Origin: an uncultured Methanosarcinales archaeon | Lineage (GTDB): Archaea; Nanobdellota; Nanobdellia; Woesearchaeales; CAYGWL01 | Reading direction: 5' to 3' | DNA length: 26,196 nucleotides | NCBI GenBank assembly: GCA_964353575.1 | Contig: CAYGWL010000155.1 | Span: 1 to 26,196, forward strand | Part shown: positions 2,151 through 18,344 of the stretch, in pieces | Layout of the letters: every line of letters begins with the position of its first letter | Position numbering within the stretch: the first letter of the stretch is position 1 | Position numbers and translations under genes: made by a program | The notes under the pieces: model-generated | Seen by the model: the letters and a program-made list of their open reading frames with translations, nothing else | Database searches by the model: none | Told to the model about the DNA's origin: nothing

Positions 2151-2230
2151 TATCAATGCAAGGTACAGACTCTAAAATTCTTAACAAGCTACATTTATGT
2201 ACCTTTTGGTATAAAATTATCCCCCTCTCA

Positions 2231-2270
2231 ATATATAAATGTTTCTAAAATAATCGAAACATTTAAATAT
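2231..2270. promoter_or_regulatory. Back-to-back BRE/TATA-like elements forming a 17-bp inverted repeat
   Basis: 2231-2247 ATATATAAATGTTTCTA and 2254-2270 TCGAAACATTTAAATAT are reverse complements at 15/17 positions. Each reads GAAACATTTA(T/A)ATAT outward. Confidence 0.6.
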
Positions 2271-2275
2271 CAGAA

Positions 2276-2295
2276 GTAATTACTATAGTAATTAC
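2276..2295. promoter_or_regulatory. Perfect 20-bp palindrome, candidate operator
   Basis: GTAATTACTATAGTAATTAC is its own reverse complement. It lies between the TATA-like box (2255-2269) and the SD (GAGGGGGTG) of the AbrB-like gene. Confidence 0.65.
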
Positions 2296-2314
2296 ATAAG
2301 AGGGGGTGTTGAAG

Positions 2315-2809
2315 ATGGAAACAAAAAATATATATTATTCAACCAAGATAATAAAACAAGGAAATTCTGCATGCATTAGGATTCCCAGTGGTGTGCTCAA
2401 CTATTTGGACTTGGATGTAGGAGACGTTGCCAGTATAAGTATTAAAAGACCTGAAATAATCAATTTGCCAAAAGATCTCTTAGACATATACCGGAAACAC
2501 ATGAGATCCATATCTAAATTCACAGACAAGGAAATGAGCTTGTGTTTCCACTACTTTCAGTTGGAAGGCAATCTGTTAGGGAACATTGACAAGAATATGT
2601 CAGAGAAAGCCAAAGAAATCTTTGAGAGAGCAATAGCAGTGGATAAAGGAAACAAGTTCCTTAAGAGATACCAAGCTTTTAAAAGAGTTATGATAAACTT
2701 GAAAAACCAGAAGAAGGTGATTAAGGCCTTTGAAAAGACCAAATACGGACCAAACTTCAAAAAAGGCCTGGAAATCTCAGGAGCATATGATATATTTTTC
2801 CCTAAATAA
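2315..2809 (+). CDS. AbrB/MazE/SpoVT-family DNA-binding domain protein with helical C-terminal extension
   Basis: N-terminal TKIIKQGNSACIRIPSGVLNYLDLDVGDVASISIK fits the swapped-hairpin AbrB/MazE pattern. The ATG at 2315 follows an SD-like GAGGGGGTG. Confidence 0.8.
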   Translation: METKNIYYSTKIIKQGNSACIRIPSGVLNYLDLDVGDVASISIKRPEIINLPKDLLDIYRKHMRSISKFTDKEMSLCFHYFQLEGNLLGNIDKNMSEKAKEIFERAIAVDKGNKFLKRYQAFKRVMINLKNQKKVIKAFEKTKYGPNFKKGLEISGAYDIFFPK

Positions 2810-3021
2810 ACTTAGGCATTACCAGTTTGACAGGAATCTAAGAAGGTGAATTATTAAGGTTATCTAAAGTGCGAAATTCCAGCATCAATTACCTTCTTTT
2901 TAATGAATAAACGAAAGTTATGTATATTAGTAACCTTCGTTTACTCTATAATTATAGGTATGTACTTAAAAGTTTACCCAAAAAGGTTCAGGAAGAAAGT
3001 TCTGGAGCATCTCAAATAAAA

Positions 3022-3155
3022 GGCTCTGTCCTAAATCTCTTTGTCAACGCTTTGCCCTCCGGGTTTTCTTCTCCTCCCCTTAACTCTGTATGGGGAGGAG
3101 AAGAAAAGTTCACGTAAGTGAACCAAAGCGTTGATGTGACTTTTAGGACAGGGTC
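3022..3155 (+). ncRNA. Candidate structured non-coding RNA (nested stems with multiway junction); family unknown
   Basis: Stems: 3022-3035/3142-3155 (14 bp, 2 G-U), 3044-3054/3124-3134 (11 bp perfect), 3064-3079/3092-3107 (16 bp perfect) and 3108-3113/3118-3123 closing a GUAA (GNRA) loop. G-U pairs and the GNRA loop favour the + strand. Confidence 0.5.
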
Positions 3156-3163
3156 CAAGTAAA

Positions 3164-3182
3164 AAGCAAACCTTTAAAATAG
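3164..3182 (+). promoter_or_regulatory. BRE/TATA-like promoter of the A24 peptidase gene (leaderless start)
   Basis: AAGCAAACCTTTAAAATAG lies about 23-30 nt upstream of the ATG at 3204, which has no SD. Confidence 0.55.
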
Positions 3183-3203
3183 TTAAGCCTCTTTTTTGCT
3201 GTT

Positions 3204-4334
3204 ATGCTCTGGGTGATAGATGCCTTGTCAGTATTGCTTGTTGTAGTTCTTGGCATTGTAACCAGCTATGAGGACGTAAAATACAGCAGGATAAGGAACA
3301 AATGGGTTGTCATGGCAATAATTGCAGGATTTGTTCTTTTGGCATTAAGATTTATTATTATAATGGTTACTGGCACTGGGGTAAATATAAAATACTTCAC
3401 AGAATTCTTCCTGAACTTTTTTATAGTGTTTGTTGTTGGTGTTTTGCTGTGGGAGATGAAGCTTTGGAATCCTGCTGATGCAAAGCTCTTCCTGGCTTAT
3501 GCTGCATTGATGCCCTTGTCAGTTTATGAGTGGGGCTATGTTAACCATTTTCCATCAGCTCTTCTCCTGATTAACACCTTTATTCCGTGCTTTGTTTTTT
3601 ACACTGCTCTTCTCATAATTAAAACAAGCGCCAAAGAAAAGCTTGGCGTGATGAAAGAGGTTCTTCAGCCAAAGAGCCTGCTTAGCTTTTTTGTGTTTGT
3701 GTTCGCCTTTGAGTGGCTCATCAAACTGGTCTTTGGTTTTTTGAAAGTAAAGCCGCAATTTTTGGTTACAACCCTTATGCTCTTTGTTCCCCTGCTCTTT
3801 TTTGAAAAAGTCCTGAAAATTGACAGCTTCAAATTTGCCCTTGCAATCACACTTATGAGATTTATATTTGACTTCAAAAACATCCTGAGTGTGGCAACAT
3901 TGCTGGATATTCTAAAGACATTCGTGACATTTTTCATACTAAGGTATTTCCTGCTTAACCTGAGCTCAAGATTCTTTGCCATGCCTGTCAAAATCAAGGA
4001 ACTTAAGCCAGGCATGATGCTCACAGAAGATTTCTATAAGGAAAAGGGTGAGATTAAGAAGAGAAAGGGCTTCATGCCAATAAGCTATCTCTCAGGAGTT
4101 TTCCAGATGGCGAGAAGAAAGGATAATGTTGTAAGCGCCTCAGAAACCTTGACAAAAGAAGATATTGAAAAGATTAAGAAACTGCATGCCTCGGGAAAGA
4201 TAAAGGAAAGAGCAGTGTATATCTATCAGACTGTTCCATTTGCTCCTTTCCTATTTCTTGGGGTTTTGCTCACACTGATTTTCAGAGGCAACTTCATTAT
4301 AGGATTAAAGATTCTCATAGAAAGCTTTATATAA
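3204..4334 (+). CDS. A24-family (prepilin/preflagellin peptidase-like) intramembrane aspartic peptidase
   Basis: Polytopic membrane protein with first Asp motif SYEDVKYSRIRNKW, second Asp motif WNPADAKLFLA (GxGD variant) and C-terminal VPFAPFLFLG, which is typical of FlaK/PibD-like A24 proteins. Confidence 0.85.
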   Translation: MLWVIDALSVLLVVVLGIVTSYEDVKYSRIRNKWVVMAIIAGFVLLALRFIIIMVTGTGVNIKYFTEFFLNFFIVFVVGVLLWEMKLWNPADAKLFLAYAALMPLSVYEWGYVNHFPSALLLINTFIPCFVFYTALLIIKTSAKEKLGVMKEVLQPKSLLSFFVFVFAFEWLIKLVFGFLKVKPQFLVTTLMLFVPLLFFEKVLKIDSFKFALAITLMRFIFDFKNILSVATLLDILKTFVTFFILRYFLLNLSSRFFAMPVKIKELKPGMMLTEDFYKEKGEIKKRKGFMPISYLSGVFQMARRKDNVVSASETLTKEDIEKIKKLHASGKIKERAVYIYQTVPFAPFLFLGVLLTLIFRGNFIIGLKILIESFI

Positions 4335-4368
4335 ATCAGATTTATACGTTTTATGGAGGGTGGTTTGT

Positions 4369-4770
4369 ATGGATGAAAAAAAGGATGTGAAGGTAATCGG
4401 CAACTTGGAAATAAATAATAATGAAGGGCTTCTTGTTGTTTCTGTTAACCCAAAGATCTACCCATTAAACATAGTCTACTCTGCCTCCTATGTCTTTATT
4501 GACAAGGCATTTGTGGTTATTGACGGCGACCCTAAGGAAGAAATCTTGGTTGAATTAAGACCAAAGGACAAGAGCCAGGACTTGGAGGAGATGGGACGCG
4601 ATTTCAACAACGAGCTCCTGAGCTATGCAGTTTACGAAGCCCAGAGTTTGAAGAATGCTCCAATAAGGGAAGCCATTGTCAAAAGGGCAATGATGATTGG
4701 TGAGGCTGCTGAAGAACCTGAAAAAGAGATTGGTGAGATTAGTAAAAAACATGAAAAAGATAAAAATTGA
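4369..4770 (+). CDS. hxsD: His-Xaa-Ser system protein HxsD-like (copy 1)
   Basis: Pattern VNPKIYPLNIVYSASYVF...DFNNELLSY...IREAIVKRA resembles HxsD, and it lies directly upstream of HxsB. The ATG at 4369 follows SD GGAGGGTG. A TATA-like GCTTTATATAAAT at 4324-4336 overlaps the end of the peptidase gene. Confidence 0.75.
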   Translation: MDEKKDVKVIGNLEINNNEGLLVVSVNPKIYPLNIVYSASYVFIDKAFVVIDGDPKEEILVELRPKDKSQDLEEMGRDFNNELLSYAVYEAQSLKNAPIREAIVKRAMMIGEAAEEPEKEIGEISKKHEKDKN

Positions 4771-5002
4771 TAAGCACAATAATGAAGTGAAGCTAATTGT
4801 TGACACAAAGTTCTATGGAAGGGCTGCTGTTCTTGAAGCATCCAAGGACTTTACACAAAGCTGCTGGGTGTTTGTGGATGGGGACATTGATGACGAGCTC
4901 TTTGTAAGCTTGAAGCCGAAATCAGGCAGCATAAATCTTGACACTTTGGGACAGGAGTTTTACAACTACATGCTTGGAATAATGCAAAATGCCCGTTCTT
5001 AA
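4751..5002 (+). CDS. Short HxsD-like protein (copy 2)
   Basis: Start moved to the ATG at 4751 (SD GGTGAG). VDTKFYGRAAVLEASKDF...LFVSLKPK...LGQEFYNYML parallels copy 1 (VNPKIY...ILVELRPK...MGRDFNNELL). It overlaps both neighbours. Confidence 0.7.
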   Translation: MKKIKIDKHNNEVKLIVDTKFYGRAAVLEASKDFTQSCWVFVDGDIDDELFVSLKPKSGSINLDTLGQEFYNYMLGIMQNARS

Positions 5003-6380
5003 GGACTTGAAAGGGTTCATACCCAATACTGTAAGGGTAAGGAAGATTGGCTCAAAGTATTTGCTTACAGATGACTGCGGCAGATGGCATGCCCTGGACA
5101 AAGAAGAGTATTTTTCATTCTTAAAAGCACAAGTGAGTGACGAGCTTTTTGAAAAGCTTGAGAAAAAAGGCATGGTAATCACTGAGCACAACAAAGAAGA
5201 GGTGATACAAAACTGCAGGAACAAGAAACTGCTTCTTTTCCAGGGAACATGTCTGCACATAATTGTTGCAACACTTAGGTGCAACCATAACTGCCTTTAC
5301 TGCCAGGCAAGCTCAAAGCCCATTAATGCAAAGGAAACAGACATGAGCATGGAAACAGCAAAGAAAACAGTGGACTTCATTTTCCAAAGCCCTTCTAAGG
5401 CAATAACAATAGAGTTCCAGGGAGGAGAGCCTTTATTGAATTTTCCTGTTGTAAAGTTTATAATTGATTATGCCAAAGAACTCAACAAAAAGCACAAAAA
5501 GGATTTGCGCTTTTCCATTGTAACAAACCTGAGCTTAATGAGTGACGAAATCCTTGACTTTCTCATAAAAAACAGGATAGGAATATGCACATCTTTGGAT
5601 GGTCCTGAGATTGTCCATAACAAGAACAGGCCTTATAGCCAGGGGAATTCTTTTGAAATAACCAGCACATGGATAAAGAAGATATTATCACAAAAAGGCA
5701 ATATAAGCGCTTTGGTAACAACAACAAGGCATTCCTTCCCTTATTACAAGGAAATAGTTGACACCTACAAAGAGCTTGGCTTGAAAAGGATATGGATAAG
5801 ACCTGTTAACAGGCTGGGAACAGCAGGGAATGCCTGGAAGGCAATCGGTTACACGCCAGAGGAGTTTTTTGAGTTCTGGAAGAAATGCCTTGACTACATA
5901 ATCAGGAACAAGCTGGACATGACAGACATATTCACAGAATATCTGCTAAAGAAAATACTCACAGGATATGACCCATATTATCTTGACTTAATGAGTCCAT
6001 GCGGAGCAGCAATAGGGCAGATGGCTTATAACCATGACGGAGACATTTACAGCTGCGATGAGGCAAGGATGATAAAAGAGGAAATGTTCCTGCTTGGAAA
6101 TGTGCATGAAAGCGCTTACAAAGATATAATGTCCTCAGACCAAGTAAAGGGTCTTGTGAGCGCATCTGTCAATGACTGCCTGCCATGCGATAACTGTGCT
6201 TACAAGCCATACTGCGGTGTGTGCCCTGTGTGCAGCTATGCCATCTACAACAATCTCATACCCAAGCTTCCAAGCGATTTCAGGTGCCGGCTCCATAAAA
6301 AGCAGTTTGACTATGTCTTTGAAAAGCTTATCTTTGACGAGGATTACAAAAAGGTTTTCATGAAGTGGGTGGGTGTTTAA
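4989..6380 (+). CDS. hxsB: His-Xaa-Ser system radical SAM/SPASM maturase HxsB
   Basis: LHIIVATLRCNHNCLYCQAS (CX3CX2C), FIFQSPSKAITIEFQGGEPLLNF, SPCGAAIGQMAYNHDGDIYSCDEARM and SPASM CDNCAYKPYCGVCPVC. There is an N-terminal extension of about 85 aa, a possible precursor-recognition element. Confidence 0.88.
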   Translation: MPVLKDLKGFIPNTVRVRKIGSKYLLTDDCGRWHALDKEEYFSFLKAQVSDELFEKLEKKGMVITEHNKEEVIQNCRNKKLLLFQGTCLHIIVATLRCNHNCLYCQASSKPINAKETDMSMETAKKTVDFIFQSPSKAITIEFQGGEPLLNFPVVKFIIDYAKELNKKHKKDLRFSIVTNLSLMSDEILDFLIKNRIGICTSLDGPEIVHNKNRPYSQGNSFEITSTWIKKILSQKGNISALVTTTRHSFPYYKEIVDTYKELGLKRIWIRPVNRLGTAGNAWKAIGYTPEEFFEFWKKCLDYIIRNKLDMTDIFTEYLLKKILTGYDPYYLDLMSPCGAAIGQMAYNHDGDIYSCDEARMIKEEMFLLGNVHESAYKDIMSSDQVKGLVSASVNDCLPCDNCAYKPYCGVCPVCSYAIYNNLIPKLPSDFRCRLHKKQFDYVFEKLIFDEDYKKVFMKWVGV

Positions 6381-7920
6381 TTTGGAAGTATCAAACATAA
6401 TGATATATGTGACCAATAACTGCAATCTTGCCTGTCCATACTGCTTTGTCAACAAAGACCCCAAAAGGATGAATCTTGAGACAGCAAAGGCATCAATCGA
6501 CTTCCTCATAGGGCAGGCAAAGAAAAACAAGAACCTCAACATAAACTATTTCGGAGGAGAACCATTGCTTGAGTTTGAGCTCATCAAGCAAACAACAGAG
6601 TATGCAAAGGAGCAGGCGAAAAAGAATAATAAAAACATTGGTTTTGGTGTTACAACCAATGCTACCTTGTTCACACAGGAGATTATTGACTATTTCTGGG
6701 ACAATGACTTTGGCATATTGTTCAGCTTTGACGGCGATAAAGAACAAATAGTTAAAGTTAAAGGCATTAAAGCCTATAGCCAAATGATAAATTCTGCAAA
6801 ACTTCTAAGGAAAAAGGGCTTCAGGCTGCATGCAAGGGTTACTGTTTGCCCGGATGACTTGAGAATGGTTGATTCTGTGAAGCACATAACCCAAGTTGGT
6901 TTTGATGGCATGTCCTTGTGCCCAATGTCAGGAACAGATTCCTGGAATCAGGAGCAAGCAGACAAGGCGTTTATGGAGCTGGCTGATTATTACATCCAAA
7001 ACATAGAGAAAATCAAAATGCTCGAGAGCTATGTTGAAAAAGATTTGTTAGTAAGCATGGAGCTGCAAACACCATCTCAAAGCCCTTGCGGTGCTGGAAA
7101 AGGGCTAATGGCAATGACAGTTGATGGAAAAATACTCCCATGCCAGCATCCGGAAACATGGGAAGAAAGCCATGTATTGGGAAATGTTTTTGACAAAAAG
7201 ATAGATGAGGAAAAGAGAAGGCCTTTCCTTGAATACAAAAGGGATGACTTTATTGGTTGCAATGGCTGTATCGCAAGGTCTCACTGCATAGGCGCCTGCC
7301 CAAACCTTAATTATGACACAAGCAAAAACATTCTCAAGCCCTGGGAAGGCGGCTGTGTATGGACAAAGGCAAGATATAAGGCAGTAAAGCACATTTTTGA
7401 TGAGCTTTATGTTAAGCAAAAAAACCTTCCCTTAATCAGACTTGTGCTGAAAAACATGATTGGCTGGACAAATTATCCGAGAGAAAATGTTTTTGATGTG
7501 AATAGGCTTGAAGCTTATGAAAGCATTGAAAATTTGAAATCTATTTCATTCAAAATAAGCGAGCAGGACTTGAATCTGGAAACAGGAAACAGAATAATCC
7601 AGTTCCTGAATAATATCAAGCAGTCAAATAAAGAGTTAAAAATAACAAGACCTTTGCCTCCCTGCCTCTTTGGCTCAAAATCAATGAAAATCTTCAAGGA
7701 GTTCAACATACCGAAGCAGAGCGGAAAGACGCTTGAGAACCTCAAAACCTCGGACTACATAATAGAATCCTGCGACACAGGCAAAGGCTTCACTCCTCAA
7801 ACAAAGAAGCTTAGGGAACTATACCAATACTACATCAAAAATGCTCAACTGCCTCACAAGTGCGAGGACTGCGTATACAGGATAAGAAAAAAGTGTGATT
7901 ATGCCTATTTTGGGCTTTGA
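6373..7920 (+). CDS. Radical SAM/SPASM peptide maturase with additional C-terminal Cys-containing extension
   Basis: CNLACPYC, YFGGEPLL, TTNATL, then SPASM CGAGKG...DGKILPC...CNGCIARSHCIGACP...C. An extension of about 150 aa contains PLPPCLF and CEDCVYRIRKKC. The start could be the TTG at 6382. Confidence 0.88.
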   Translation: MFNLEVSNIMIYVTNNCNLACPYCFVNKDPKRMNLETAKASIDFLIGQAKKNKNLNINYFGGEPLLEFELIKQTTEYAKEQAKKNNKNIGFGVTTNATLFTQEIIDYFWDNDFGILFSFDGDKEQIVKVKGIKAYSQMINSAKLLRKKGFRLHARVTVCPDDLRMVDSVKHITQVGFDGMSLCPMSGTDSWNQEQADKAFMELADYYIQNIEKIKMLESYVEKDLLVSMELQTPSQSPCGAGKGLMAMTVDGKILPCQHPETWEESHVLGNVFDKKIDEEKRRPFLEYKRDDFIGCNGCIARSHCIGACPNLNYDTSKNILKPWEGGCVWTKARYKAVKHIFDELYVKQKNLPLIRLVLKNMIGWTNYPRENVFDVNRLEAYESIENLKSISFKISEQDLNLETGNRIIQFLNNIKQSNKELKITRPLPPCLFGSKSMKIFKEFNIPKQSGKTLENLKTSDYIIESCDTGKGFTPQTKKLRELYQYYIKNAQLPHKCEDCVYRIRKKCDYAYFGL

Positions 7921-7923
7921 AAA

Positions 7924-7940
7924 GCAAAAGTTTTATAAAC
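7924..7940 (+). promoter_or_regulatory. BRE/TATA-like dedicated promoter of the precursor gene
   Basis: GCAAAAGTTTTATAAAC lies in the 76-nt gap after the second rSAM. An SD-like GAGGT precedes the ATG at 7997. Confidence 0.6.
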
Positions 7941-7996
7941 AAAAATAATTATTATAAGAAGTAAGCTCAAAGGAGTAAAAAAAAGAGGTTATTGTA

Positions 7997-8494
7997 ATGG
8001 AAAGCGTTCTTCCAAAAATAAAGAAAAAGATTTCTAGCTACATAAACAGCGAAACAGGAAGAATAACAAAACAAAGCATAATCACAATAGGAGCATTCAT
8101 AGGAACAGCAGCACTAGCAACACTTGCAACAACAAAAACAGCAAAAGCAGGACTCACAGCAGAACTAAATCCAACAGAAGGAGAAAAAATAAACGTAACA
8201 GGAAAACACGTATCACACGCATCACACCAAGTATCTTGCAATGAAGCATGCGGACAAAGCTGTGGGGAAAATTGTAATCCAATCTGCGAGCAATGCGAAA
8301 CAGGATGTGAGGTATCATGCGAACCGCCCTGTCAGACATTGGAGTGTGGTCAAGGATGTGGCAGTGGAGAGTGCGGAAATTGTGAAAAGGGATGTCAAGA
8401 CTGTCAAACAGCATGTGAGTTAAGCTGTCAACATTGCCAATCTAGTAGTGAACTATGTAGAGAAATACCACACTGTAAAAACGTAACCGGGTGA
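7997..8494 (+). CDS. Putative RiPP precursor: hydrophobic leader + His-Xaa-Ser motif (HVSHASH) + 20-Cys CXXX-repeat tail
   Basis: It lies immediately after two rSAM/SPASM genes. HVSHASH is at 8207-8227 and there are 20 Cys between 8237 and 8476 (11 CX3C and 4 CX2C spacings). The N-region is basic (KIKKK) and is followed by hydrophobic IITIGAFIGTAALATLA. Confidence 0.8.
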   Translation: MESVLPKIKKKISSYINSETGRITKQSIITIGAFIGTAALATLATTKTAKAGLTAELNPTEGEKINVTGKHVSHASHQVSCNEACGQSCGENCNPICEQCETGCEVSCEPPCQTLECGQGCGSGECGNCEKGCQDCQTACELSCQHCQSSSELCREIPHCKNVTG

Positions 8495-8545
8495 ACGTAA
8501 AAAAGGTTTAGGAGTTTATTAAATAATACTAATAATCTTTTAAAA

Positions 8546-9514
8546 ATGAATAATAAAAAAAAAGAATGGGAGAAATGGTTGAATGATTTAAAAGGTAAAG
8601 GTTACTCTAAAGACAACATAAAAAACACTTTAAGAGAGCGAGGCTATAACGAGAGAGAAATAAGTGAAGTATTAAAGCTTGAGGACACAAAACAAAAAAG
8701 AACTATTTATCTGATTCTTTTTATATTTGTATTAGTTGTCAGCGCATTTTTTTTAATTAGCTATATGCAGAAACAAACAACTCCAAGAGTCATCCAAACG
8801 CCTCAGGAAATATTTACAGATGTTATGTTTTCAAACATTACAGCAGACAGAATATCTGTAGAAGAAATAACTTTGTTATTAAAGGAGCTTGAAACTACTT
8901 TCAATACACAATGTTTAGGTGTAAACTCTGTTCCTTCATACACTTGTTTCCCTTTTGTTATCTACAGCTATATTGAAACAAAAAAACAAATAGGCGTGTC
9001 TCAAGAAGATGTCCATACAGAATTGTCTTCTAAAATTCTGAGTCTCTGGAAAGATTACTATAAAAATGCAGAATTCAACAAAGAAGGTTTCATAACTGGA
9101 GAACCATCTTTTGCATTAAATTCTATTGTTCAATATTATTATTTTATAGCGTTAATGCCTGAGTCTGAAAAAGAATTTTGGTTTGAAAAGGTTTCGGAAG
9201 TTTCGCCGACAGATATTAACATGAGGTATCATTTGTTAAAGATCTACTGGGACTGTTTTAATGCTTCCATGCTATCACCAACTACAAATAGTGTGATTAC
9301 CTTAGAAGGGATGGAAAATCTTTGCTATATTAACCGTTCTATAGAGAAAGATTGGAGTGTTTGCAGAGTTCTTAAGTATCTTCAAATAAAAGAATTCTGT
9401 GAAATAGAGGTCACAAGTCAAGAAATAAGCCTTGCTCAGCAGAAATTGGAAATAGAAACACAAGACAGAACTTTACAAATCTGCAAAGAGCAACTACAAA
9501 AAAGAATTTCTTAA
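8546..9514 (+). CDS. Single-pass membrane protein with Cys-conserved extracellular domain (paralog A2)
   Basis: Full-length paralog of 3..944 with six aligned Cys and TM IYLILFIFVLVVSAFFLISYM. A TATA-like GTTTATTAAATA lies about 21-32 nt upstream of the ATG. Confidence 0.88.
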   Translation: MNNKKKEWEKWLNDLKGKGYSKDNIKNTLRERGYNEREISEVLKLEDTKQKRTIYLILFIFVLVVSAFFLISYMQKQTTPRVIQTPQEIFTDVMFSNITADRISVEEITLLLKELETTFNTQCLGVNSVPSYTCFPFVIYSYIETKKQIGVSQEDVHTELSSKILSLWKDYYKNAEFNKEGFITGEPSFALNSIVQYYYFIALMPESEKEFWFEKVSEVSPTDINMRYHLLKIYWDCFNASMLSPTTNSVITLEGMENLCYINRSIEKDWSVCRVLKYLQIKEFCEIEVTSQEISLAQQKLEIETQDRTLQICKEQLQKRIS

Positions 9515-9523
9515 ACATTTGGA

Positions 9524-10633
9524 TTAGTTCTTAGGAGACCAATCAAGTTGACCATTGTACACGATAGCCTTGTCTAAAATCTTTGTAAGACCGCTGCCAT
9601 CAGCATCCATAGTATAAATATCAAGACCAGAAGTGAAAATTATATTTCTGCCGTCAGGAGACCAAGAAATACCTGTCTCCTGCAGGTTGTTATTTGTTAG
9701 TCTTTGTTGTTCACTGCCATCAGCATGCATAACGTAAAGTTCATCACTACCATCCCTAGTAGACATGAAAGCAAGATACTTACCATCAGGAGACCAAACA
9801 GGACTCCAGTCAAGTGCATCATTATTGGTTAGTTGAGCTAAATCGCTGCCGTCGCTGGCATTCATAGTATAAATCTCTAAGTGGTTATTGCGTAAGGAAA
9901 CGAAGGCAATACAGCTACCATCAGGAGACCAAACAGGACGACTACCGTCAGGCCAAGCTTCTTCAGTTAGTCTTACCAGACCACTGCCATCCTTATTCAT
10001 AACATACACATCATCACTGCTATTTTGGTCAGAAACAAAAGCAATTTTTTTACCATCAGGAGACCAAGAATGACTTCGGTCAAATCCGGCATCATCAGTT
10101 AATCTATGTTGATTACCACCATTCGCATCCATAACATAAATTTCTCCGCTACCATTCCTATTAGACGTGAAAGCAATATACTTACCATCAGGAGACCAAG
10201 AAGGACTATAATCCTGCCAGGGACTTTCAGTAAGTCTAGTAATATCACTGCCATCGTCATTCATAGCATAAACATCTTCATTACCTCCTTTTAAAGAAGT
10301 AAAAGCTATTTTTCTGCCATCAGGAGACCAAGAAGGATCATATTCTGGTTTTAGTGTATTAGTCAATCTAACAAAATCGCCACCATCAGCATTCGTAACA
10401 TAAATCTCAGGATTGCCATCTCTCATAGAAGCAAAAGCAATGCGGCCAGCAGAACTCTCCTGCGCAATACTCTCTAAAGCAGAAAACTCTTCAGATGAGT
10501 CAGCATGTGCTGCAGGAGCAGGTTCATATGGTTGATGATTAAAAGGTGAAGCAACTGCCGGCAAAGCCATAGTTCCCAGAACTAAACCGGTTGCTACTGC
10601 TCTCCTCACTTTTTGACTAAGACTAAGACTCAT
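9524..10633 (-). CDS. Secreted TolB-like/PD40 (WD40-like) beta-propeller protein
   Basis: Start moved to the ATG at 10633 (MSLSLSQKVRRA), about 23 nt below a TATA. It has a signal peptide (...LPAVAS), six WSPDG repeats and a terminal WSPKN. The DNA repeat (a/g)cc(a/g)tcaggagacca recurs every 132-135 bp or so. Confidence 0.9.
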   Translation of the reverse strand: MSLSLSQKVRRAVATGLVLGTMALPAVASPFNHQPYEPAPAAHADSSEEFSALESIAQESSAGRIAFASMRDGNPEIYVTNADGGDFVRLTNTLKPEYDPSWSPDGRKIAFTSLKGGNEDVYAMNDDGSDITRLTESPWQDYSPSWSPDGKYIAFTSNRNGSGEIYVMDANGGNQHRLTDDAGFDRSHSWSPDGKKIAFVSDQNSSDDVYVMNKDGSGLVRLTEEAWPDGSRPVWSPDGSCIAFVSLRNNHLEIYTMNASDGSDLAQLTNNDALDWSPVWSPDGKYLAFMSTRDGSDELYVMHADGSEQQRLTNNNLQETGISWSPDGRNIIFTSGLDIYTMDADGSGLTKILDKAIVYNGQLDWSPKN

Positions 10634-10655
10634 GTACAATTGAAAAAACACACTC

Positions 10656-10700
10656 ATATATAAACCTTTCGGTTTCGTTACTACATAAGTGTGACAAAAA
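10656..10700 (-). promoter_or_regulatory. BRE/TATA promoter plus conserved upstream block, copy 2 of a 45-bp repeat
   Basis: 41/45 identical to 2106..2150, exactly 8550 bp apart. Confidence 0.85.
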
Positions 10701-10740: not shown

Positions 10741-12273
10741 CTAAGTCCTTTGCTTTGACTGGTTTGACAGTGCCCTGAACTGCATTTCAGATATTGGCAC
10801 AGGGTATACCTGCTGCGCCTTCCATAACTGGCTTTTTGCAAAGGCAGAAACCATGGCTACGGAGGGTACGCTACAATAAATTGGGTCAGGTACAGTACAC
10901 CCTGCAGGCACATATGTTGTGTCTTCCAAAAGCTGGATATTAACAATGGCGTCGTTTATTGCTCCGCTTACTGTAAGTGGCATCACTCTCTTTGGCTCGC
11001 CATCTTTTATAACATATGCTTCACTACAATCTAGCCTGTAAGTTTTATCTTCAGGGTCTGTATGCCCTGCTACGGAAGCTATCACAATCTTTCCTTCCAT
11101 ATCAATATCTTGTGCTGAACCATCCAGAACTATGCAGCTCATCCTAGGCCGCGGGAATATTCCAGAGCCCAGGACAGCATTTCCTACAAATGTGCTTTTT
11201 TCCAGATTCAGGTAGCGCTTTAACCCTTCAGAGTCTGCGTACTCACTTCCCAGGAATCCGACAATCCTGGCACCTTGTATAAGCACCCTTGGTTCTCTCT
11301 TCCTTCCATAAGCATCAAAATGCGAGAATCCCTGCACCCTGAACCCCTCTATCTCCTGTAAAGGATTGTCTACAAAGGTTATGCCTTTATCCAGTGAGGT
11401 TTTATCATCATAAACTATGTCTTGCCCGTATTCAAATACCCCAATCTGCCCGAAGTCTATTGGTTCTATGGGCTCTTCGAAATGATGTCCAAATATTTCA
11501 TGGATTGGTAGGCCGTCAAGTATAACCACATCGTATAAAGACTGTTTTTTGATTCATGCATCCTTTAAGCTTATGAATTCCAACCCTGAAATATTATACA
11601 ATTCATGGAATGCCTGGCTGAAGGATTTCGCATGTTTAATCCTCTTGTCCGGTGTTGGGTCTTGAATATACTTTATTAAGGCGGGCAATCTTGTGAGGTC
11701 ATCATCTGAATTGCACACAGCAGCAGTATGCCTGATTATTGGCAAGGGTTCATCACTATGAGTATAATAGATTTGAAAAAATGGAATTGATTCAATAGCC
11801 ATCCCTCCCTTTGAGTTTACAACAATTCTTTGTTCAACTTTCAAACGCCTCAAAATTGTTGTATCTCTGTGTTGTGCTGTGAATTCAATAAACTCATCAT
11901 CATACATTGTAAAGGTGTCTGGAATGGTTTCTACGCGAAAATCCTGTTCCCTTGGCAATTCAATGCCTTTCGGCTGAAAATCGAATCTGTGAACTTGTAG
12001 GTCCCTTGTAACCTTTACCCTTCCAAAAATAGATGGAGTCAAATCCGCAACCTCTGCCCGGGTATATTCCCCTCTTTTCATCATCTCCTTATTAATACCG
12101 GACCCAGCCCCTATTTGTTGGTCAACTATCTTACCATTCATAAATTCAACAGAGTCAGAAACGGAATTATTGTATCTGGAGACGGTGCTGCTATGCCTTT
12201 TTATCTCACCGTAAAGCAAATCAGCAATCTGCTCCAGTTCCTGGGCTGTTTTAACTGATTCATGCAGTTCCAT
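10741..12273 (-). pseudogene. tldD: TldD/PmbA-family metalloprotease interrupted by one in-frame TGA (pseudogene, sequence error or readthrough)
   Basis: ORFs 11554..12294 and 10741..11529 are in the same frame: ...SLKDA*IKKQSLYDVVILDGLPIHEIFGHHFE. HExxGHxxE is the TldD zinc motif. The fused length is 510 codons from the ATG at 12273, which lies about 24 nt below a TATA-like GGAAACTTTATAAA. Confidence 0.65.
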
Positions 12274-12376
12274 AAAACAAGAGTGATGCCTCAAGCTTTA
12301 TAAAGTTTCCGAATTTATGACTACTCTAAGATAGTTATTTTAATATGGCGTGTTATAAGAAAACACGGTTAAAATT

Positions 12377-12781
12377 TTAACTGCATTTTATCCCGTTCAC
12401 AGTTGCCTTGGAGCTTCCCAGGCATGCCTTGCTGTCTATGGGTATGAGCCTGCCCATGGAGTCTTCCAGGTAAATGTAGAATTCTTTTTCCACTCCGAGC
12501 TCCTGCTTTATGCTGTCATAACTGAGTTTTGACATGCTTTCAAGTCTTGCCTGGTCTATAATATTTCCATCCAGGAATGCTAATTCGTGGTTTGAGCTTT
12601 CGCTGTCAATGGTGAGCTTTTCAAGAATAGCATTTGTTTCATCTTCTGTCTGCGGAACTAATAGAAGGTTTACGAAGAAAACAAGAAGCACAACGAATAT
12701 GACTATGAAAATCCATTCATCACCAGGGCTGACAGCATTGTGCCTTTTTATGCTCTCCTCTTTTTTTTTCAATCCTATCAC
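12377..12781 (-). CDS. Pilin-like single-TM protein, paralog of 12869..13270, with degenerate class III signal
   Basis: It shares LSYDSIKQELGVEKEFYIYLEDSMG with MSYEDLKRQLGIEGGDFCIHFEDEDG of the upstream gene, has an N-terminal hydrophobic helix, and lacks a clear KAQ motif. Confidence 0.7.
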   Translation of the reverse strand: MIGLKKKEESIKRHNAVSPGDEWIFIVIFVVLLVFFVNLLLVPQTEDETNAILEKLTIDSESSNHELAFLDGNIIDQARLESMSKLSYDSIKQELGVEKEFYIYLEDSMGRLIPIDSKACLGSSKATVNGIKCS

Positions 12782-12868
12782 CTTCTTTTCTGATTCTTAT
12801 TATATTTTTATTATGATTGTTTTCTGTTTTTCTGTGCTTCAGTTTCTACTATTATCCCTTTTATTTAA

Positions 12869-13270
12869 CTACTTTTTGGTTTCATTGCAGGGTGTTCCGC
12901 TTATGTCTATCTTTCCAGAGCCTATGCCAACCTTGTTGCCGCTTATGTAGATTATGTTTCCATCCTCATCCTCAAAGTGTATGCAAAAGTCCCCTCCTTC
13001 TATACCCAGCTGCCTCTTAAGGTCTTCATAGCTCATGTTAGCCAGTTCTGAGAGCTTTTGCGAATCTACTTTGTTTCCCTCTATGAATGCCTGCGAGCTC
13101 TTGTTGCCTGCTGTTGTCAGGCTTTCATGGAGCTTTTCTGCTTCTGATGTCATTGCCTTGAGCTGTTCTGACTGTGATTTTAAGCCGGTTATGTAAAAGA
13201 ATCCCAGGATTATAAGGAAGAACATTATAATAGCAACTATGATGTCCGCTGACCATACCTGGGCTTTCAT
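12869..13270 (-). CDS. Class III signal peptide (type IV pilin-like) protein
   Basis: MKAQVWSADIIVAIIMFFLIIL. The ATG overlaps the upstream stop (ATGA at 13267-13270). Confidence 0.85.
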   Translation of the reverse strand: MKAQVWSADIIVAIIMFFLIILGFFYITGLKSQSEQLKAMTSEAEKLHESLTTAGNKSSQAFIEGNKVDSQKLSELANMSYEDLKRQLGIEGGDFCIHFEDEDGNIIYISGNKVGIGSGKIDISGTPCNETKK

Positions 13271-13698
13271 GGGCACGCCTCCTTGTTCAGGCAGATTACT
13301 CCCTGCTGCTTTGATATGTTGTTTTTCCCTTTATTAATTTTTCCTTCAATGTTTTTTGGAAGTGTCAATACGTGCTCAAACTCCTTTGAGCGGTTAACAT
13401 ATTTTATGCTCAGCTCGCTGAAATTTGTTTTCATTTGGCTTGCTGTTGACAGGTTTATTGAGTATATCTTGTCCCTCAGGTCTTTTGGCAACTCAAAGCT
13501 TCTGAAGTAGCCGTTCTCTGCCATCAAGGCAAGGTCTACCTCGTTTTGTATAACTGCCCCGACATCCTTTATGAGCTCCCTGTCCTTCTGCTCCTGAACA
13601 TCAACATATCTGTCAGAAACAACCAGCAGGAATGATGTGAATATAAGGAACATGAAGCTTATCATCATTGCTGATTCAACTGCTGATTGGGCTTTCAT
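13267..13698 (-). CDS. Class III signal peptide (type IV pilin-like) protein
   Basis: MKAQSAVESAMMISFMFLIF: KA|Q cleavage site, Glu at +5, then a hydrophobic helix. Confidence 0.88.
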   Translation of the reverse strand: MKAQSAVESAMMISFMFLIFTSFLLVVSDRYVDVQEQKDRELIKDVGAVIQNEVDLALMAENGYFRSFELPKDLRDKIYSINLSTASQMKTNFSELSIKYVNRSKEFEHVLTLPKNIEGKINKGKNNISKQQGVICLNKEACP

Positions 13699-13703
13699 CT
13701 TGA

Positions 13704-14162
13704 TTATCTTGTAAAGTTTATGTTAACATAAGATGGTGTTCCTTCCACAGCCGCTACTCTTATTACTTTTGCTCCTGGAGCCCAGTCACGTTTTGAGAAG
13801 CTTCCGTTTATGTTAACCCTTGAAAAAAACACTTGTTCAGATTGCTTTCCTCCGAATCTTGTGTAGAAAACAAGCTCATTAACTTTGGGCTCCACTGCCC
13901 AGTTGTTGAATATTGATATGTTATAAACGCCTTCAGGCATTTGCTCATCAATATCCTGCCTTGATGGATAGCCAAGGTAGTAGATGGTTTCTGCAGAGTC
14001 AACTATGTCGTTTCCCATCTTATCTATCTGCCCTGCTTTTATCCTCTCGCTTGAGCTCTGGGCATACTTGTAGAAGATGTAACTTGCAGGCACTATCAGC
14101 GCCATAACAAGCGCTATGACCATCAGATACTCCATGGCTGCCTGAGCTCTCAACAAATTCAC
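13704..14162 (-). CDS. Class III signal peptide (type IV pilin-like) protein
   Basis: RAQAAMEYLMVIALVMALIV: RA|Q site, Glu at +5. The real start may be the TTG at 14153, after SD GAGGTGA. Confidence 0.88.
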   Translation of the reverse strand: MNLLRAQAAMEYLMVIALVMALIVPASYIFYKYAQSSSERIKAGQIDKMGNDIVDSAETIYYLGYPSRQDIDEQMPEGVYNISIFNNWAVEPKVNELVFYTRFGGKQSEQVFFSRVNINGSFSKRDWAPGAKVIRVAAVEGTPSYVNINFTR

Positions 14163-14315
14163 CTCTTTATGCTTTTAATCATGAATTTGGGAATTCATTA
14201 TTTATATTTTGTGTTTTTAGGGTTTTATTTTGTTTTCATTCTTATTTTTAGCGTTACTAATTTTATTCAGCTGTATTATGTTTTTAGTAAAAAAATCAGA
14301 ATTATAAAAAAAAAT

Positions 14316-14792
14316 TTATTCTATTTGTGCTACAAGAACGCCGGTCATGTTGTGACCCACTGCACCAGTAGTGTCTGCGCGATTCCAGTTTATGGTTATG
14401 TCACTATTTAACTTTCCCTTGCCTGCCCTTGATGCTGGCGGAACTGTTGCGCAGGTGTCTATTATGAATTGCACCTCTTCTCCCTGGAGAATACTTGCTG
14501 TGAAATCCTTTGCGCAGTCAAAAACATTGGATTTAACCGAAATGTGTGTTACTGCTACATCATATTGCCAGTTGTTTTCCAGGGTTATTATGACTTGACC
14601 GACTCCGCTTGAGTCAAGCTTGTAGTCCTTGCACTTGAGCCATGTCTCTCCTGTCTCGCATCTTGAGGGCATGAATGTCTGCGGGTTCAGAACACCGAAA
14701 TATGTTAGTGCTCCTAGAACAACCAGAACAACCAGTATTGCCCAGCCATAGGTCATAAGGAATTCCATGGCTGCTTGTGCTTTTCTTGCCAT
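14316..14792 (-). CDS. Probable major type IV pilin (class III signal peptide)
   Basis: MARKAQAAMEFLMTYGWAILVVLVVLGALTYFGVLNP, a pilin N-terminus widespread in archaea. SD GAGGAGG precedes the ATG at 14792. Confidence 0.9.
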   Translation of the reverse strand: MARKAQAAMEFLMTYGWAILVVLVVLGALTYFGVLNPQTFMPSRCETGETWLKCKDYKLDSSGVGQVIITLENNWQYDVAVTHISVKSNVFDCAKDFTASILQGEEVQFIIDTCATVPPASRAGKGKLNSDITINWNRADTTGAVGHNMTGVLVAQIE

Positions 14793-14872
14793 AATCATCA
14801 TCCTCCTCTTTTTTATGTTTTTAAATACGCTTTTCAGATATTATAGTTTGAGACTATTTAAATTTTTCTCTT

Positions 14873-15910
14873 TTAAAGGAACATGCCTGATATTATCTTT
14901 GTTGCGACCAGCATGAATATCTGGAACATGGTCAGGGAGCCTATTAGGAATAAGGGTACGTATTTTATGCCTGCTTTTATTGAGCCGCGCTGTATCATGG
15001 AGACAATCATGGAGGAGCATATGGCTGTCACTATTATAGCATATCTTGAAAAGTTAAGAAACATCTTTGGGTCAAGTTTTATGCTTGAGAAGTTTATGGG
15101 CATGGCTACTGCTGATTCTGCTGAAACACCTCCGAGTCTTGATGAAAATCCCTGCACTATTAGGAGGAACTGGTGCGACAGGGTGAATAGTAGGGGTGCT
15201 ATGATTATTACAACAAAGGTTATGAATATCACATAAGTCAGGTTTGTTGTTGCCATCTCTGACTTTAGCTCCTTTGTGTCTTCTATGTTCTCAACTATGC
15301 GGTCAATCAGATCAGCTATCTTTCCTCCGCCTTTCATTCCCTCAACAATGAGGTTGAATGAGCGCTTGAGCATTGGCGAGTCATACTTGTCTGTGAATTC
15401 CTGCAGTGCTTCTTCTATGTCTTGCCCTGTCATTACACGTTTTGCAACCAATCTCACTTCATTAGCCAGAACATCAAACTCTGGTCTTATGGCTGACCAC
15501 AGCGCCCTTTCAACAGGCATTCCTCCCCTGAGGTTTTCTGAAACAAATCTTAAGAAGTCCTGCAGCACTGCTTCCATGCGCTGGGTGCGGTTGAATATCC
15601 TCATGTCTATATAGAAGTATATGGCAGATATGAAAACCAAAACTATTAAGCCGAGCGCAAGGGCGAAGAATGCAAAGAATATCATGAATTGCAGGAGGAT
15701 GTTAAAGTCCTTTGCTAAGACCCAGGGATATATTTTCAGGATGAAGAGCGCGGATGTTATGAATACAGCTATCCAGAAAAGTCCTCCAAAGACCTTGTAA
15801 GGCACCTCTGTTATGCCTGCCTTGAGCAGGTAGCTCCTTATGTTTGGCCTTATCCTCCTTGGCAAGAATGCCTTTCCAACTTCCTCTGTCAGAAATTCTA
15901 TTATATTCAT
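14873..15910 (-). CDS. Type II secretion system F-family membrane platform (TadC/FlaJ-like)
   Basis: LQDFLRFVSENLRGGMPVERAL...RPEFDVLANEV...GGKIADLIDRI with multiple TM helices; adjacent to the pilus ATPase. Confidence 0.9.
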   Translation of the reverse strand: MNIIEFLTEEVGKAFLPRRIRPNIRSYLLKAGITEVPYKVFGGLFWIAVFITSALFILKIYPWVLAKDFNILLQFMIFFAFFALALGLIVLVFISAIYFYIDMRIFNRTQRMEAVLQDFLRFVSENLRGGMPVERALWSAIRPEFDVLANEVRLVAKRVMTGQDIEEALQEFTDKYDSPMLKRSFNLIVEGMKGGGKIADLIDRIVENIEDTKELKSEMATTNLTYVIFITFVVIIIAPLLFTLSHQFLLIVQGFSSRLGGVSAESAVAMPINFSSIKLDPKMFLNFSRYAIIVTAICSSMIVSMIQRGSIKAGIKYVPLFLIGSLTMFQIFMLVATKIISGMFL

Positions 15911-16728
15911 AGGTTCACCATTGGTCTTGTGCCTCTTATGAGGGATATGAAGCTCAGCTGTATTACTGCGATAAAGAAGAGCAGGGAAAAGAGGAGGCCT
16001 TGGCTTATCTCAAGCTGTATAAATCCTGACAGTATTATGAACATGGTCACTCCTATGGAGGGCATTACGCAGGCAATGACCATGTAGAACATCATGAGGG
16101 AGTTGAGTTTTTTTGAATATGCCTTTATCTCAAGTATCTGCTCCTCGGTTATTGATTTGAGTGTTGCCCTTAAGGGGTCGGCAACATCTGCGCCTGTATT
16201 TAATGACGTAATGATTTGCCATAGTATCCTCTTGAACTTGTCAGATGCATTATATTCCCGTGCAGTTTCAAGGGCTTCCTCTATGGGCGTTCCTGTGTTT
16301 ATTTCATCAACTATCTCCTTGAAATATTCTGCGCACACACCATAGCTCTTTGAGGCATCTATCAATGTGTTGAACAAAGGGTATCCTGATTCCATCTTCA
16401 CCAGGAGATATCTTCCAGCAAAGAGTACCTCCTTGTTTATCTCGCGCTCGCGCTTGCTTATCATGCCGTAGGGCGTCTGCAGTATGAAGAAAATGGTGAA
16501 GGTAAAAGTGAGAGGGAAAACAATGAGCAGCCAAACCAAGGGTATTTCAAGCCTGTCAAACATGAAGAACATGAGCACAGTCATGGCTATTCCTGAAAAA
16601 AGTGCAAGTCTCAGCCCTTTAGCCACAAATTCTTTGGGATTCTGCTTTACCTTGGCTATTCTCAGAAGCCTCTTAAGTCCGGGATTTCCCTTGATTATGT
16701 ATCCTGCCAGATCAAAAATAAGCGCCAC
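15907..16728 (-). CDS. Type II secretion system F-family membrane platform (TadB/TadC-like)
   Basis: EINKEVLFAGRYLLVKMESGYPLFNTL...EIVDEINTGTPIEEALE...TGADVADPL with TM segments. Confidence 0.9.
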   Translation of the reverse strand: MALIFDLAGYIIKGNPGLKRLLRIAKVKQNPKEFVAKGLRLALFSGIAMTVLMFFMFDRLEIPLVWLLIVFPLTFTFTIFFILQTPYGMISKREREINKEVLFAGRYLLVKMESGYPLFNTLIDASKSYGVCAEYFKEIVDEINTGTPIEEALETAREYNASDKFKRILWQIITSLNTGADVADPLRATLKSITEEQILEIKAYSKKLNSLMMFYMVIACVMPSIGVTMFIILSGFIQLEISQGLLFSLLFFIAVIQLSFISLIRGTRPMVNL

Positions 16729-16744
16729 CTCTCTTATTGAAAAT

Positions 16745-16894
16745 TTTAATTATTAAATGTTATTTTTTGTTTTCATTGTTATTGTTTTTTATTTTTGTTT
16801 TTATTGTTGTTGTTGTTATTATTATTTTTTTGTTTTGTTATTATTTTTTATTTTATTATCATACTTTTTATTTTCATTAATTCCGTTTTCTTAT
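16745..16894 (-). repeat. A-rich (AAT/AAC)n low-complexity intergenic spacer
   Basis: Sense (minus) strand reads ...AATAATAATAACAACAACAACAATAAAAACAAAAATAAAAAACAATAACAATGAAAACAAAAAATAACA..., with no usable ORF. Confidence 0.75.
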
Positions 16895-18343: not shown

Positions 18344-18344
18344 G

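Follow-up and report, generated by a model that had tools for sequence, protein, structure and literature searches.

A specialized prepilin-type peptidase as a candidate leader protease of His-Xaa-Ser peptide cassettes in DPANN archaea

The bacterial His-Xaa-Ser (HXS) system, HxsD-HxsB-HxsC-HxsA, is an antiphage system in Escherichia coli whose product HxsA bears a modification of +8 Da, acts in the periplasm to stop phage DNA from entering and undergoes a non-canonical N-terminal cleavage dependent on HxsB, HxsC and HxsD, the protease not being named (Li et al., Nat Commun 2026, PMC13128918). That study places 99.7% of HXS systems in Pseudomonadota, and the words ‘archaea’, ‘peptidase’, ‘prepilin’ and ‘protease’ are absent from its text (PMC13128918). 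Here we describe a related cassette on a 26,196-nucleotide archaeal contig (CAYGWL010000155.1, here C155; this whole stretch is the window) from a 1.09-Mb genome, G000, that is 93% complete; the named homologues of the window’s proteins are from Woesearchaeota. Six plus-strand genes spanning 3204-8494 encode, in order, a prepilin-type (A24) peptidase, which we call A24p, HxsD, a smaller HxsD-like protein, the radical S-adenosylmethionine (SAM) maturase HxsB, a second radical SAM enzyme and a precursor peptide. Textbooks assign prepilin peptidases to pili, archaella and type II secretion; the overall explanation that we favour, with moderate confidence, is that this specialized paralogue instead cuts a tagged precursor of the HxsA3 type within a His-Xaa-Ser cassette of DPANN archaea.

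With bacterial HXS the cassette shares an HxsB above the curated cut-off, together with a putative HxsD and a presumably exported substrate that has two His-x-Ser triplets. The bacterial HxsA needs N-terminal processing beyond plain removal of a signal peptide, as the archaeal precursor presumably does, and we count this non-canonical cleavage of HxsA (PMC13128918) in favour of trimming by A24p. The differences are equally clear: where bacterial HXS has HxsC, the window has a PapB-like enzyme and most relatives have none; the archaeal cassette, unlike its bacterial counterpart, possesses two HxsD paralogues and its own A24 membrane protease; and its precursor, of the HxsA3 type, carries a conserved 20-residue tag before a hydrophobic segment and lacks the peptidoglycan-binding domain of bacterial HxsA. 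Only the E. coli system is known to be antiphage (PMC13128918).

Among A24 enzymes, A24p resembles FlaK, PibD and EppA (MEROPS A24B) in being a two-aspartate GxGD membrane protease with an Arc_PepC domain and without a methyltransferase domain, but it forms a separate clade with its own signatures and is linked to peptide-modifying rather than filament genes. Their substrates have K or R at -2, whereas in the presumed A24p substrate -2 is E and both +1 and +4 are charged; that paralogues can each have substrates of their own is already known from EppA and FlaK. The TadV/CpaA peptidases of Tad systems (type IVc pili) are likewise methylase-less and act on very small substrates, the Flp prepilins, whose leaders end in acidic-x-Gly before a helix, and JGI labels some A24p homologues ‘CpaA’; however, the Flp processing rule, G/XXXXEY (PMC10934763; a slash in motifs marks the cut), and any Flp Pfam match are absent from the leaders described here, and no Tad genes lie nearby. 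Known leader peptidases of ribosomally synthesized and post-translationally modified peptides (RiPPs), namely the C39 peptidases of ABC exporters, LanP subtilisins, TldD/E and prolyl oligopeptidases, share with our system a dedicated protease encoded with the maturases and a conserved leader; A24p differs as an intramembrane GxGD aspartyl protease that would act at the cytoplasmic face on a membrane-inserted precursor. In full-text literature searches, no paper brought together a prepilin peptidase, radical SAM enzymes, RiPPs and archaea, and none linked HXS to archaea; HXS itself is already known from bacteria, and an archaeal variant with its own protease appears to be new.

A24p (3204..4334, +; 376 aa) is identified by Pfam matches, a family alignment, an AlphaFold2 model and a tree. 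It matches Pfam Arc_PepC at 36.2 bits (cut-off 23.4) and straddles the 26.5-bit cut-off of Peptidase_A24, scoring 25.3 bits by hmmscan and 28.6, over the cut-off, in a six-frame search; its Atlas cluster is annotated PF01478 and PF06819, and an NCBIfam scan of the peptidase returned no model at E <= 0.01. About eight hydrophobic helices are accompanied by a soluble Arc_PepC domain at about residues 259-341, and an AlphaFold2 model built from a 66-sequence alignment of the window peptidase’s subfamily (A1) shows a helical membrane core and a soluble alpha/beta domain (pLDDT 91.4, pTM 0.86). Two aspartates, D24 within S-Y-E-D-V-K and D92 within W-N-P-A-D-A-K-L-F, align with both catalytic positions of the genome’s canonical A24 enzyme (S-F-T-D-I-K; W-G-G-G-D-S-K-V), and alignment A1 is invariant at D24, I30, N32, W88, D92, K94, L95 and P104. 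At E <= 1e-30, 866 cluster representatives (50% identity) fall in the subfamily; its second Asp motif reads W-[ST]-A-[GA]-D-A-K-L-F, and K-I-R-N-K is a further signature. Because D24 is kept in 116 and D92 in 117 of 118 distinct full-length members (N32 and K94 in all 118), the catalytic dyad is under selection, a pattern expected of an active enzyme, and A24p is probably catalytically intact. A preliminary description of this DNA, made from the letters and their open reading frames (ORFs), had reported both Asp motifs in a same-strand gene 34 bp 5' of hxsD and no other protease or transporter in the cluster; the former agrees with our coordinates, the gap being 34 bp when hxsD starts at ATG 4369, and no further gene of either kind lies within 3204-8494.

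Besides A24p, the genome encodes a second A24 enzyme on contig C88, with the canonical GGGDSK motif, a Pfam score above that of A24p and 25% identity to it. Across a sample of 401 genomes of the phylum, in which leader, HxsB and A24p distributions were also counted, PF01478 occurs in 387 and the A24p profile in 53. A maximum-likelihood tree of 28 A24p and 21 canonical A24 sequences, the latter taken from the same genomes as the A24p members, splits the two groups at a single branch of length 2.86 (support 100/100). A24p is an accessory, specialized paralogue in its own clade, not the housekeeping peptidase.

The association of this paralogue with Hxs genes is widespread. All seven A24p homologues that were looked up (30-51% identity) adjoin HxsD and an HxsB-like radical SAM enzyme, one in divergent orientation, and most of these loci also hold the small HxsD-like gene. 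Of the sampled genomes, 51 contain HxsB and 53 A24p, with both in 45; 27 of 55 A24p copies lie less than 3 kb from HxsB, in about 22 GTDB families by our own count from tables. A pattern scan with one genome per species turned up 302 relatives, and in the best 80 loci, mapped with hidden Markov models (HMMs) built here, HxsD stands beside A24p in 61, HxsB in 61 and a recognizable leader gene in 44. The contigs with complete cassettes bear the labels Woesearchaeota, Nanoarchaeota, Aenigmatarchaeota and Iainarchaeum. The pairing of A24p with Hxs genes recurs in dozens of GTDB families and is not chance, the conserved core being A24p, HxsD, the second HxsD (HxsD'), HxsB and precursor; A24p is almost certainly a genuine, conserved component of the cassette. 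The A24-hxsD-hxsB synteny, which the preliminary description had proposed to survey, is conserved on each of these counts, and its concern that A24 genes might not adjoin hxsB elsewhere is answered by the 61 of 80 species-level loci. We also observed A24p-HxsD-HxsB(-leader) arrangements on contigs labelled bacterial (L095, L096, L116, L126 and L148; Desulfobacteraceae, Cytophagia, Parcubacteria, Aminicenantes and Falkowbacteria), which may reflect errors in the labelling or binning of DPANN DNA, or else a true presence in bacteria.

Within these loci, A24p tracks the precursor leader rather than the radical SAM enzyme, a conclusion that is well supported. With a leader profile built from precursors adjoining HxsB, strong matches were found in 40 of the sampled genomes, 39 of which have A24p and 36 HxsB; four (G073, G156, G181 and G256) combine A24p and leader without any HxsB, and G000 has a single copy each of A24p and of a leader-bearing gene. 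The rearranged loci are a stronger argument than the Fisher p-values for co-occurrence, which, at about 1e-41, are overstated because related genomes are not independent. In six loci (L051, L069, L109, L138, L139 and L170) A24p directly adjoins the leader gene, HxsD and HxsB being located elsewhere. Genome G035 has A24p followed by the leader gene on one contig (L051) and HxsD-HxsD'-HxsB without a precursor on another (L036); in G376 a divergent radical SAM locus (L052) carries A24p and leader, and the canonical HxsB locus (L040) neither; in G084, L138, L139 and L170 peptidase and leader gene adjoin while HxsD and HxsB are kilobases away; and G073 (L060) has A24p-HxsD-HxsD'-leader with no radical SAM enzyme. 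Four leader proteins taken from an independent database search all have an A24 gene within 4 kb. Because A24p adjoins the Hxs cassette and follows its conserved leader, the peptidase most likely trims that leader.

The precursor (7997-8494, +; 165 aa) contains everything the preliminary description had seen in it: the basic KIKKK, YINSETG, a hydrophobic helix and AKA-G. Residues 1-21 (7997..8059, +), which include L-P-K-I-K-K-K-I-S-S-Y-I-N-S-E-T-G and the N-terminal HxsA3 match, form the leader, with a candidate cut after G21. Residues 22-51 (8060..8149, +), delimited by the leader profile and an AlphaFold2 model, comprise an R-I-T-K hinge, a membrane helix at about 23-46 and A49-K50-A51; the core, residues 52-165 (8150..8494, +, stop codon included), holds H-x-S triplets at 71 and 74, followed by 20 Cys with CxxxC-like spacing. 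Its residues 5-35 match the HxsA3 model NF038309 at 32 bits against a cut-off of 65, and 37 of 38 leaders, the window’s included, match the N-terminal part of that model, from which the window protein differs in its only two H-x-S triplets and its long Cys-rich tail. Precursors of relatives carry long SH-x-SH repeats, often ending SHSSY. We note that many short HxsA3-type precursors (L007, L012, L029, L050, L052, L069, L083 and L142) have a terminal S-H-x-S-H-S-S-Y or H-G-T-Y; such endings recall the modified S-H-R-S-S motif of bacterial HxsA.

Gapless alignment of 93 distinct leaders, numbered from the conserved Gly as position 0 (G21 in the window), reveals a near-invariant motif, F-x3-E-x-G-[KR]-I-S-K. 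Position -15 is P in 80/93, -6 is F or Y in 93/93, -2 is E in 91/93, 0 is G in 89/93 and A in 4/93, +2 is I or V in 89/93, +3 is S or T in 80/93 and +4 is K in 87/93 (K25 in the window); a second small residue at +11 (G32 in the window) is G in 78, A in 8 and S in 7. The E-x-G element to which the preliminary description had drawn attention is thus conserved well beyond the window. Elsewhere, -1 is E, D, K or S, +1 is K or R, +5 is Q, E, K or H, +6 is S, A or N, and a hydrophobic run starts at about +7; the start Met lies 17-20 residues before position 0, and the uncharged core of the leaders spans 12-20 residues.

Natural variants separate the two halves of this leader. In genome G181, which has no HxsB, three precursors (L061:8605-9207, L061:17260-18450 and L067:10543-11163, all on the minus strand; one with a C-terminal Hint domain) fuse an HxsD-like domain, leader, helix and Cys/Gly-rich core. 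They adjoin a YcaO cyclodehydratase (235 bits) and a nitroreductase, with neighbour genes at L061:9317-10642 and 10745-11422, and A24p copies lie 2.6 kb from the fusions, one of the three having His for the second catalytic Asp. In such HxsD-fused precursors the upstream Pro/Lys-rich part is degenerate and F..E-x-G-x-I-S-K is intact, as expected if the upstream helix docks HxsD and another factor reads the hinge. An AlphaFold2 model of a G181 fusion has a confident HxsD domain and a leader at pLDDT about 70-78, with a leader helix at 93-109 and a membrane helix at 116-138 that starts at the conserved Lys; E-R-G-N-I-S is the sole non-helical break between them. The invariant motif is accordingly a predicted hinge at the point where the membrane helix begins on the cytoplasmic side, the place at which an A24 active site is expected from FlaK and PibD. 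A second variant occurs in genus g113, where three genomes without a strong A24p match (G378, G351 and G192) carry the leader F-I-L-E-E-D-A-K-V-I-D-K, changed from G to A at 0 and from K to D at +4 (variant leaders at L151:4961-5416(+), L152:3659-4018(-), L153:68-451(-) and L155:1-514(-)); G377, with an adjacent A24p, retains E-E-G-K-I-S-K, and one g113 genome has both leader types and A24p. The g113 pattern is essentially one evolutionary event and so anecdotal; together, the sequences of fusions and g113 variants suggest that A24p reads the hinge. As a separate observation, stand-alone HxsD proteins (for example L005:9180-9662, L006:1318-1839 and L003:9175-9696) often end in an acidic linker followed by a conserved D-P-x-G-I-A-x-P-W-E-E-K-Y-G tail; the window’s HxsD lacks this tail, the fusions have the leader in its place, and it may be a docking motif.

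We envisage that the first ~20 residues of the precursor would fold into a basic amphipathic helix that remains cytoplasmic, bound by HxsD, while HxsB modifies the C-terminal core, joined in the window by the second radical SAM enzyme for the Cys-rich part. The hydrophobic segment would then insert N-in/C-out, and A24p, its Asp dyad at the cytoplasmic face, would cut the hinge at F-x3-E-x-G/[KR]-I-S-K (G21/R22), freeing the leader from the membrane segment; outside the membrane, the core would be either released at A51/G52 by signal peptidase I or held by the helix. That A24p cuts the precursor is probable on the genomic evidence; that it cuts exactly at G21/R22 is a plausible reading of the alignment that falls slightly short of probable. 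The preliminary proposal of leader removal at ETG/R by this peptidase therefore divides, the link between peptidase and precursor being well supported and the exact site plausible and unproven. As to the core, we lean slightly towards release at A51/G52, with retention on the helix less likely and entry into a filament very unlikely. If bacterial HXS is a guide, the product may act against viruses at the cell envelope. More tentatively, A24p, HxsD and the F-x3-E-x-G-K-I-S-K tag might constitute a self-contained recognition and processing module that serves HxsB, other radical SAM enzymes and YcaO alike; with the same reserve, we suppose that such a module would operate at the membrane’s cytoplasmic face.

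Several observations weigh against cleavage of the hinge by A24p. Archaeal class III signals have [KR]-[GA]/ followed by a hydrophobic run from +1, and the genome’s own pilins read [RK]-A/Q-x-x-x-E; ETG/R breaks this rule with E rather than K or R at -2 and polar or charged residues from +1 to +6. Nor do the leaders contain the Flp G/XXXXEY, given their residues at +5 and +6, and none of 38 leaders has a Pfam Flp or pilin match, even at E <= 10. The preliminary description had itself cautioned that RITKQ (+1 to +5) is not canonical for class III, and it fails the archaeal and the Flp rule alike. The invariant residues could equally be a docking site for HxsD or HxsB, and +11, small in 93/93, offers a second small residue. 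Nearly all leaders, read by eye, end in an [AVS]-x-A site like that of signal peptidase I, often preceded by P, S or T, and because such a site allows a signal peptidase I cut, release of the core could need no A24p. The top PDB fold match of the A24p model is FlaK (3S0X), a weak one (probability 0.89, TM 0.52 on target, E 0.92), and the A1 profile searched against PDB sequences did not find FlaK, giving one spurious hydrophobic match. Fourteen of the 53 A24p genomes lack a strong leader match, and about 14 of the 80 mapped loci have no nearby Hxs gene, some of these being contig ends. Finally, co-divergence by HMM scores gave no A24p-specific signal: rho is 0.31 for A24p and leader against 0.49 for HxsB and leader, with a partial correlation of 0.17, in a crude test that scored HxsB against the window’s protein.

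Some of these points would fit a two-part leader, in which the N-terminal tag only docks HxsD and HxsB, the helix and AxA act as a Sec signal, and signal peptidase I releases a diffusible peptide; A24p would be secondary, clearing the leader-plus-helix remnant or cutting at K-x-G (G32). We regard this account as unlikely. It draws on the [AVS]-x-A seen by eye after the hydrophobic stretch in nearly all leaders, on the uncharged core of only 12-20 residues, on the invariably small +11 and on leader scores that are tracked better by HxsB than by A24p. Yet a clearing role leaves unexplained why a dedicated paralogue stays beside the leader when the maturase moves or is lost; G(0) and K(+4) remain near-invariant in HxsD fusions despite their degenerate docking part; and +11 is less conserved (84% G) than position 0 (96% G). 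Our rule-based AxA finder is moreover too permissive to count as a test, reporting a ‘site’, often the wrong one, in 90/90 leaders, and the AxA claim rests on reading alignments. The AKA/G site that the preliminary description had offered as a signal peptidase I alternative is thus present, at A51/G52, and matched by eye in nearly all leaders, with no weight to be placed on automatic detection.

Two further accounts, both very improbable, concern what A24p does and where the product goes. A24p might be a non-proteolytic membrane receptor, scaffold or export platform for the HxsD-precursor complex, as the G181 copy with His replacing the second Asp and a soluble Arc_PepC domain that could dock cytoplasmic partners would allow; retention of the Asp dyad in 116-117 of 118 sequences, with N32, K94 and L95, speaks for catalysis. 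Alternatively, after a cut at E-T-G, the modified, helix-bearing polypeptide might join a type IV filament through the neighbouring pilus machinery, since a pilus operon (12377-20309, -) lies 4 kb from the cluster in the window and pilus genes also occur in L052. An E-x-G cut would leave about 50-145 aa, a mature size within the range of Flp pilins, and F(-6), L(-5), E(-2) and G(0) presumably resemble Flp leaders. Against this fate, a conserved link to pilus genes was not found in 147 other loci, where PilC or ATPase homologues are neighbours in 1/147 and pilin homologues in a few; K at +1 and +4 would be expected to fall in the hydrophobic core of a filament; no leader matches a pilin or Flp family; and the genome’s own pilins use a different site. 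The preliminary view of a product membrane-anchored or in a filament rather than diffusible is not supported, given the AxA site in nearly all leaders and pilus genes beside 1/147 loci.

Less probable still, A24p could be a neighbour by coincidence, a housekeeping prepilin peptidase that serves the KAQ-type pilins of the nearby pilus operon, which, as first described, contains no A24 of its own. The separate PibD/FlaK-like enzyme that the preliminary description had suggested looking for exists, however: a canonical A24, the only other one in the genome, is encoded on C88, and A24p is not the sole enzyme available to those pilins. A24p is also a distinct clade restricted to Hxs-bearing genomes, and it keeps its place beside HxsD and HxsB on contigs with different phylum-level labels. 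We reject the housekeeping identity on the C88 paralogue, tree and distribution, and the earlier view of the peptidase as a cluster member, not a stray pilin peptidase, is borne out by the synteny and the separate C88 enzyme.

Least likely of all is leader removal by a nearby TldD-like metalloprotease (10741-12294, -), as in microcin B17-type RiPPs: its PmbA/TldD C-terminal domain match lies 2.2 kb from the precursor, but its frame is split into two ORFs, it is encoded on the other strand with an unrelated pair of genes in between, and we rejected it for want of a homologue in 147 related loci. The split itself, into ORFs of 262 and 246 aa, is a feature of this TldD/PmbA-like gene in the window.

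The remaining cluster genes are assigned as follows. HxsD (4369..4770, +) has an ORF that opens at GTG 4360, with ATG 4369 the likely start, 9 nt 3' of a GGAGG (4355-4359, +); it scores 46.7 bits against the TIGR03976 cut-off of 50, and Pfam HxsD, PF27806, is annotated on its homologues in 7/7 related loci. The HxsD-like paralogue (4751..5002, +; ~83 aa, ORF opening at TTG 4697) reaches 33 bits against the NF038315 HxsD_rel cut-off of 41, and most related loci have a 76-87 aa HxsD-like homologue in the same position. HxsB, a radical SAM/SPASM maturase (4989..6380, +), exceeds the TIGR03978 cut-off of 370 with 476.3 bits, and in most related loci is the sole radical SAM enzyme. The second radical SAM/SPASM enzyme (6373..7920, +), PapB/ranthipeptide-like at 237 bits against the NF047865 cut-off of 340 and without HxsC among its listed NCBIfam hits, lies outside the conserved core, a similar one following HxsB or the precursor in some relatives only; its presumed target is the Cys-rich C-terminal half of the precursor. 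PADLOC 2.0 on the window gave no Hxs-specific model, only generic viperin-like radical SAM matches.

Three TATA-like boxes were read from the sequence. One, TTTAAAATA (3173..3181, +), lies 23 nt 5' of the peptidase ATG and is a possible promoter of a leaderless transcript; a hairpin-rich intergenic stretch (3022-3155) sits directly 5' of it, for which an Rfam search returned chance miRNA-like matches only. Another, TTTTATAAA (7931..7939, +), 5' of the precursor gene, may be that gene’s own promoter. The third, TTTATATAAA (4326..4335, +), is the box that had been suspected of decoupling peptidase from hxsD: it is present, in an AT-rich genome, but overlaps the peptidase stop codon (4332-4334), and because the gap between the two genes is short in related loci, about 3-90 bp, co-transcription fits. 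Sequencing runs matching the region included no RNA run and three sediment DNA runs with 5-7% of sampled words.

Around the cluster, an M23 peptidase with a Pro/Thr-rich stalk (961-2103, -) and an AbrB/MazE-like 167-aa protein (2306-2809, +) are encoded just upstream. A 58-nt direct repeat (2093-2150 and 10643-10700; 86% identical), each copy before a minus-strand secreted-protein gene, brackets a block (2151-10642) containing the Hxs cluster, the peptidase and a second membrane-protein/secreted-protein pair (8546-10657); the repeat copies are part of a duplicated gene pair.

A conserved A24 paralogue family tied to peptide-modifying enzymes would widen the known range of this protease class. 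If such a self-contained recognition and processing module exists, A24p would be the first prepilin-type GxGD intramembrane protease to serve as a dedicated leader peptidase for modified peptides, and the precursor would define a new kind of two-part signal; the invariant leader motif and the two Asp are clear mutational targets. A24p is a concrete candidate for handing a cytoplasmically modified peptide to the membrane and freeing its recognition tag, and, should the module be real, could point to the HxsA processing step left unexplained in the bacterial HXS study. The cassette extends the HXS system, in a protease-carrying form, to archaea with tiny genomes, and, under the same condition, would suggest that HXS-like envelope defence operates in DPANN archaea.

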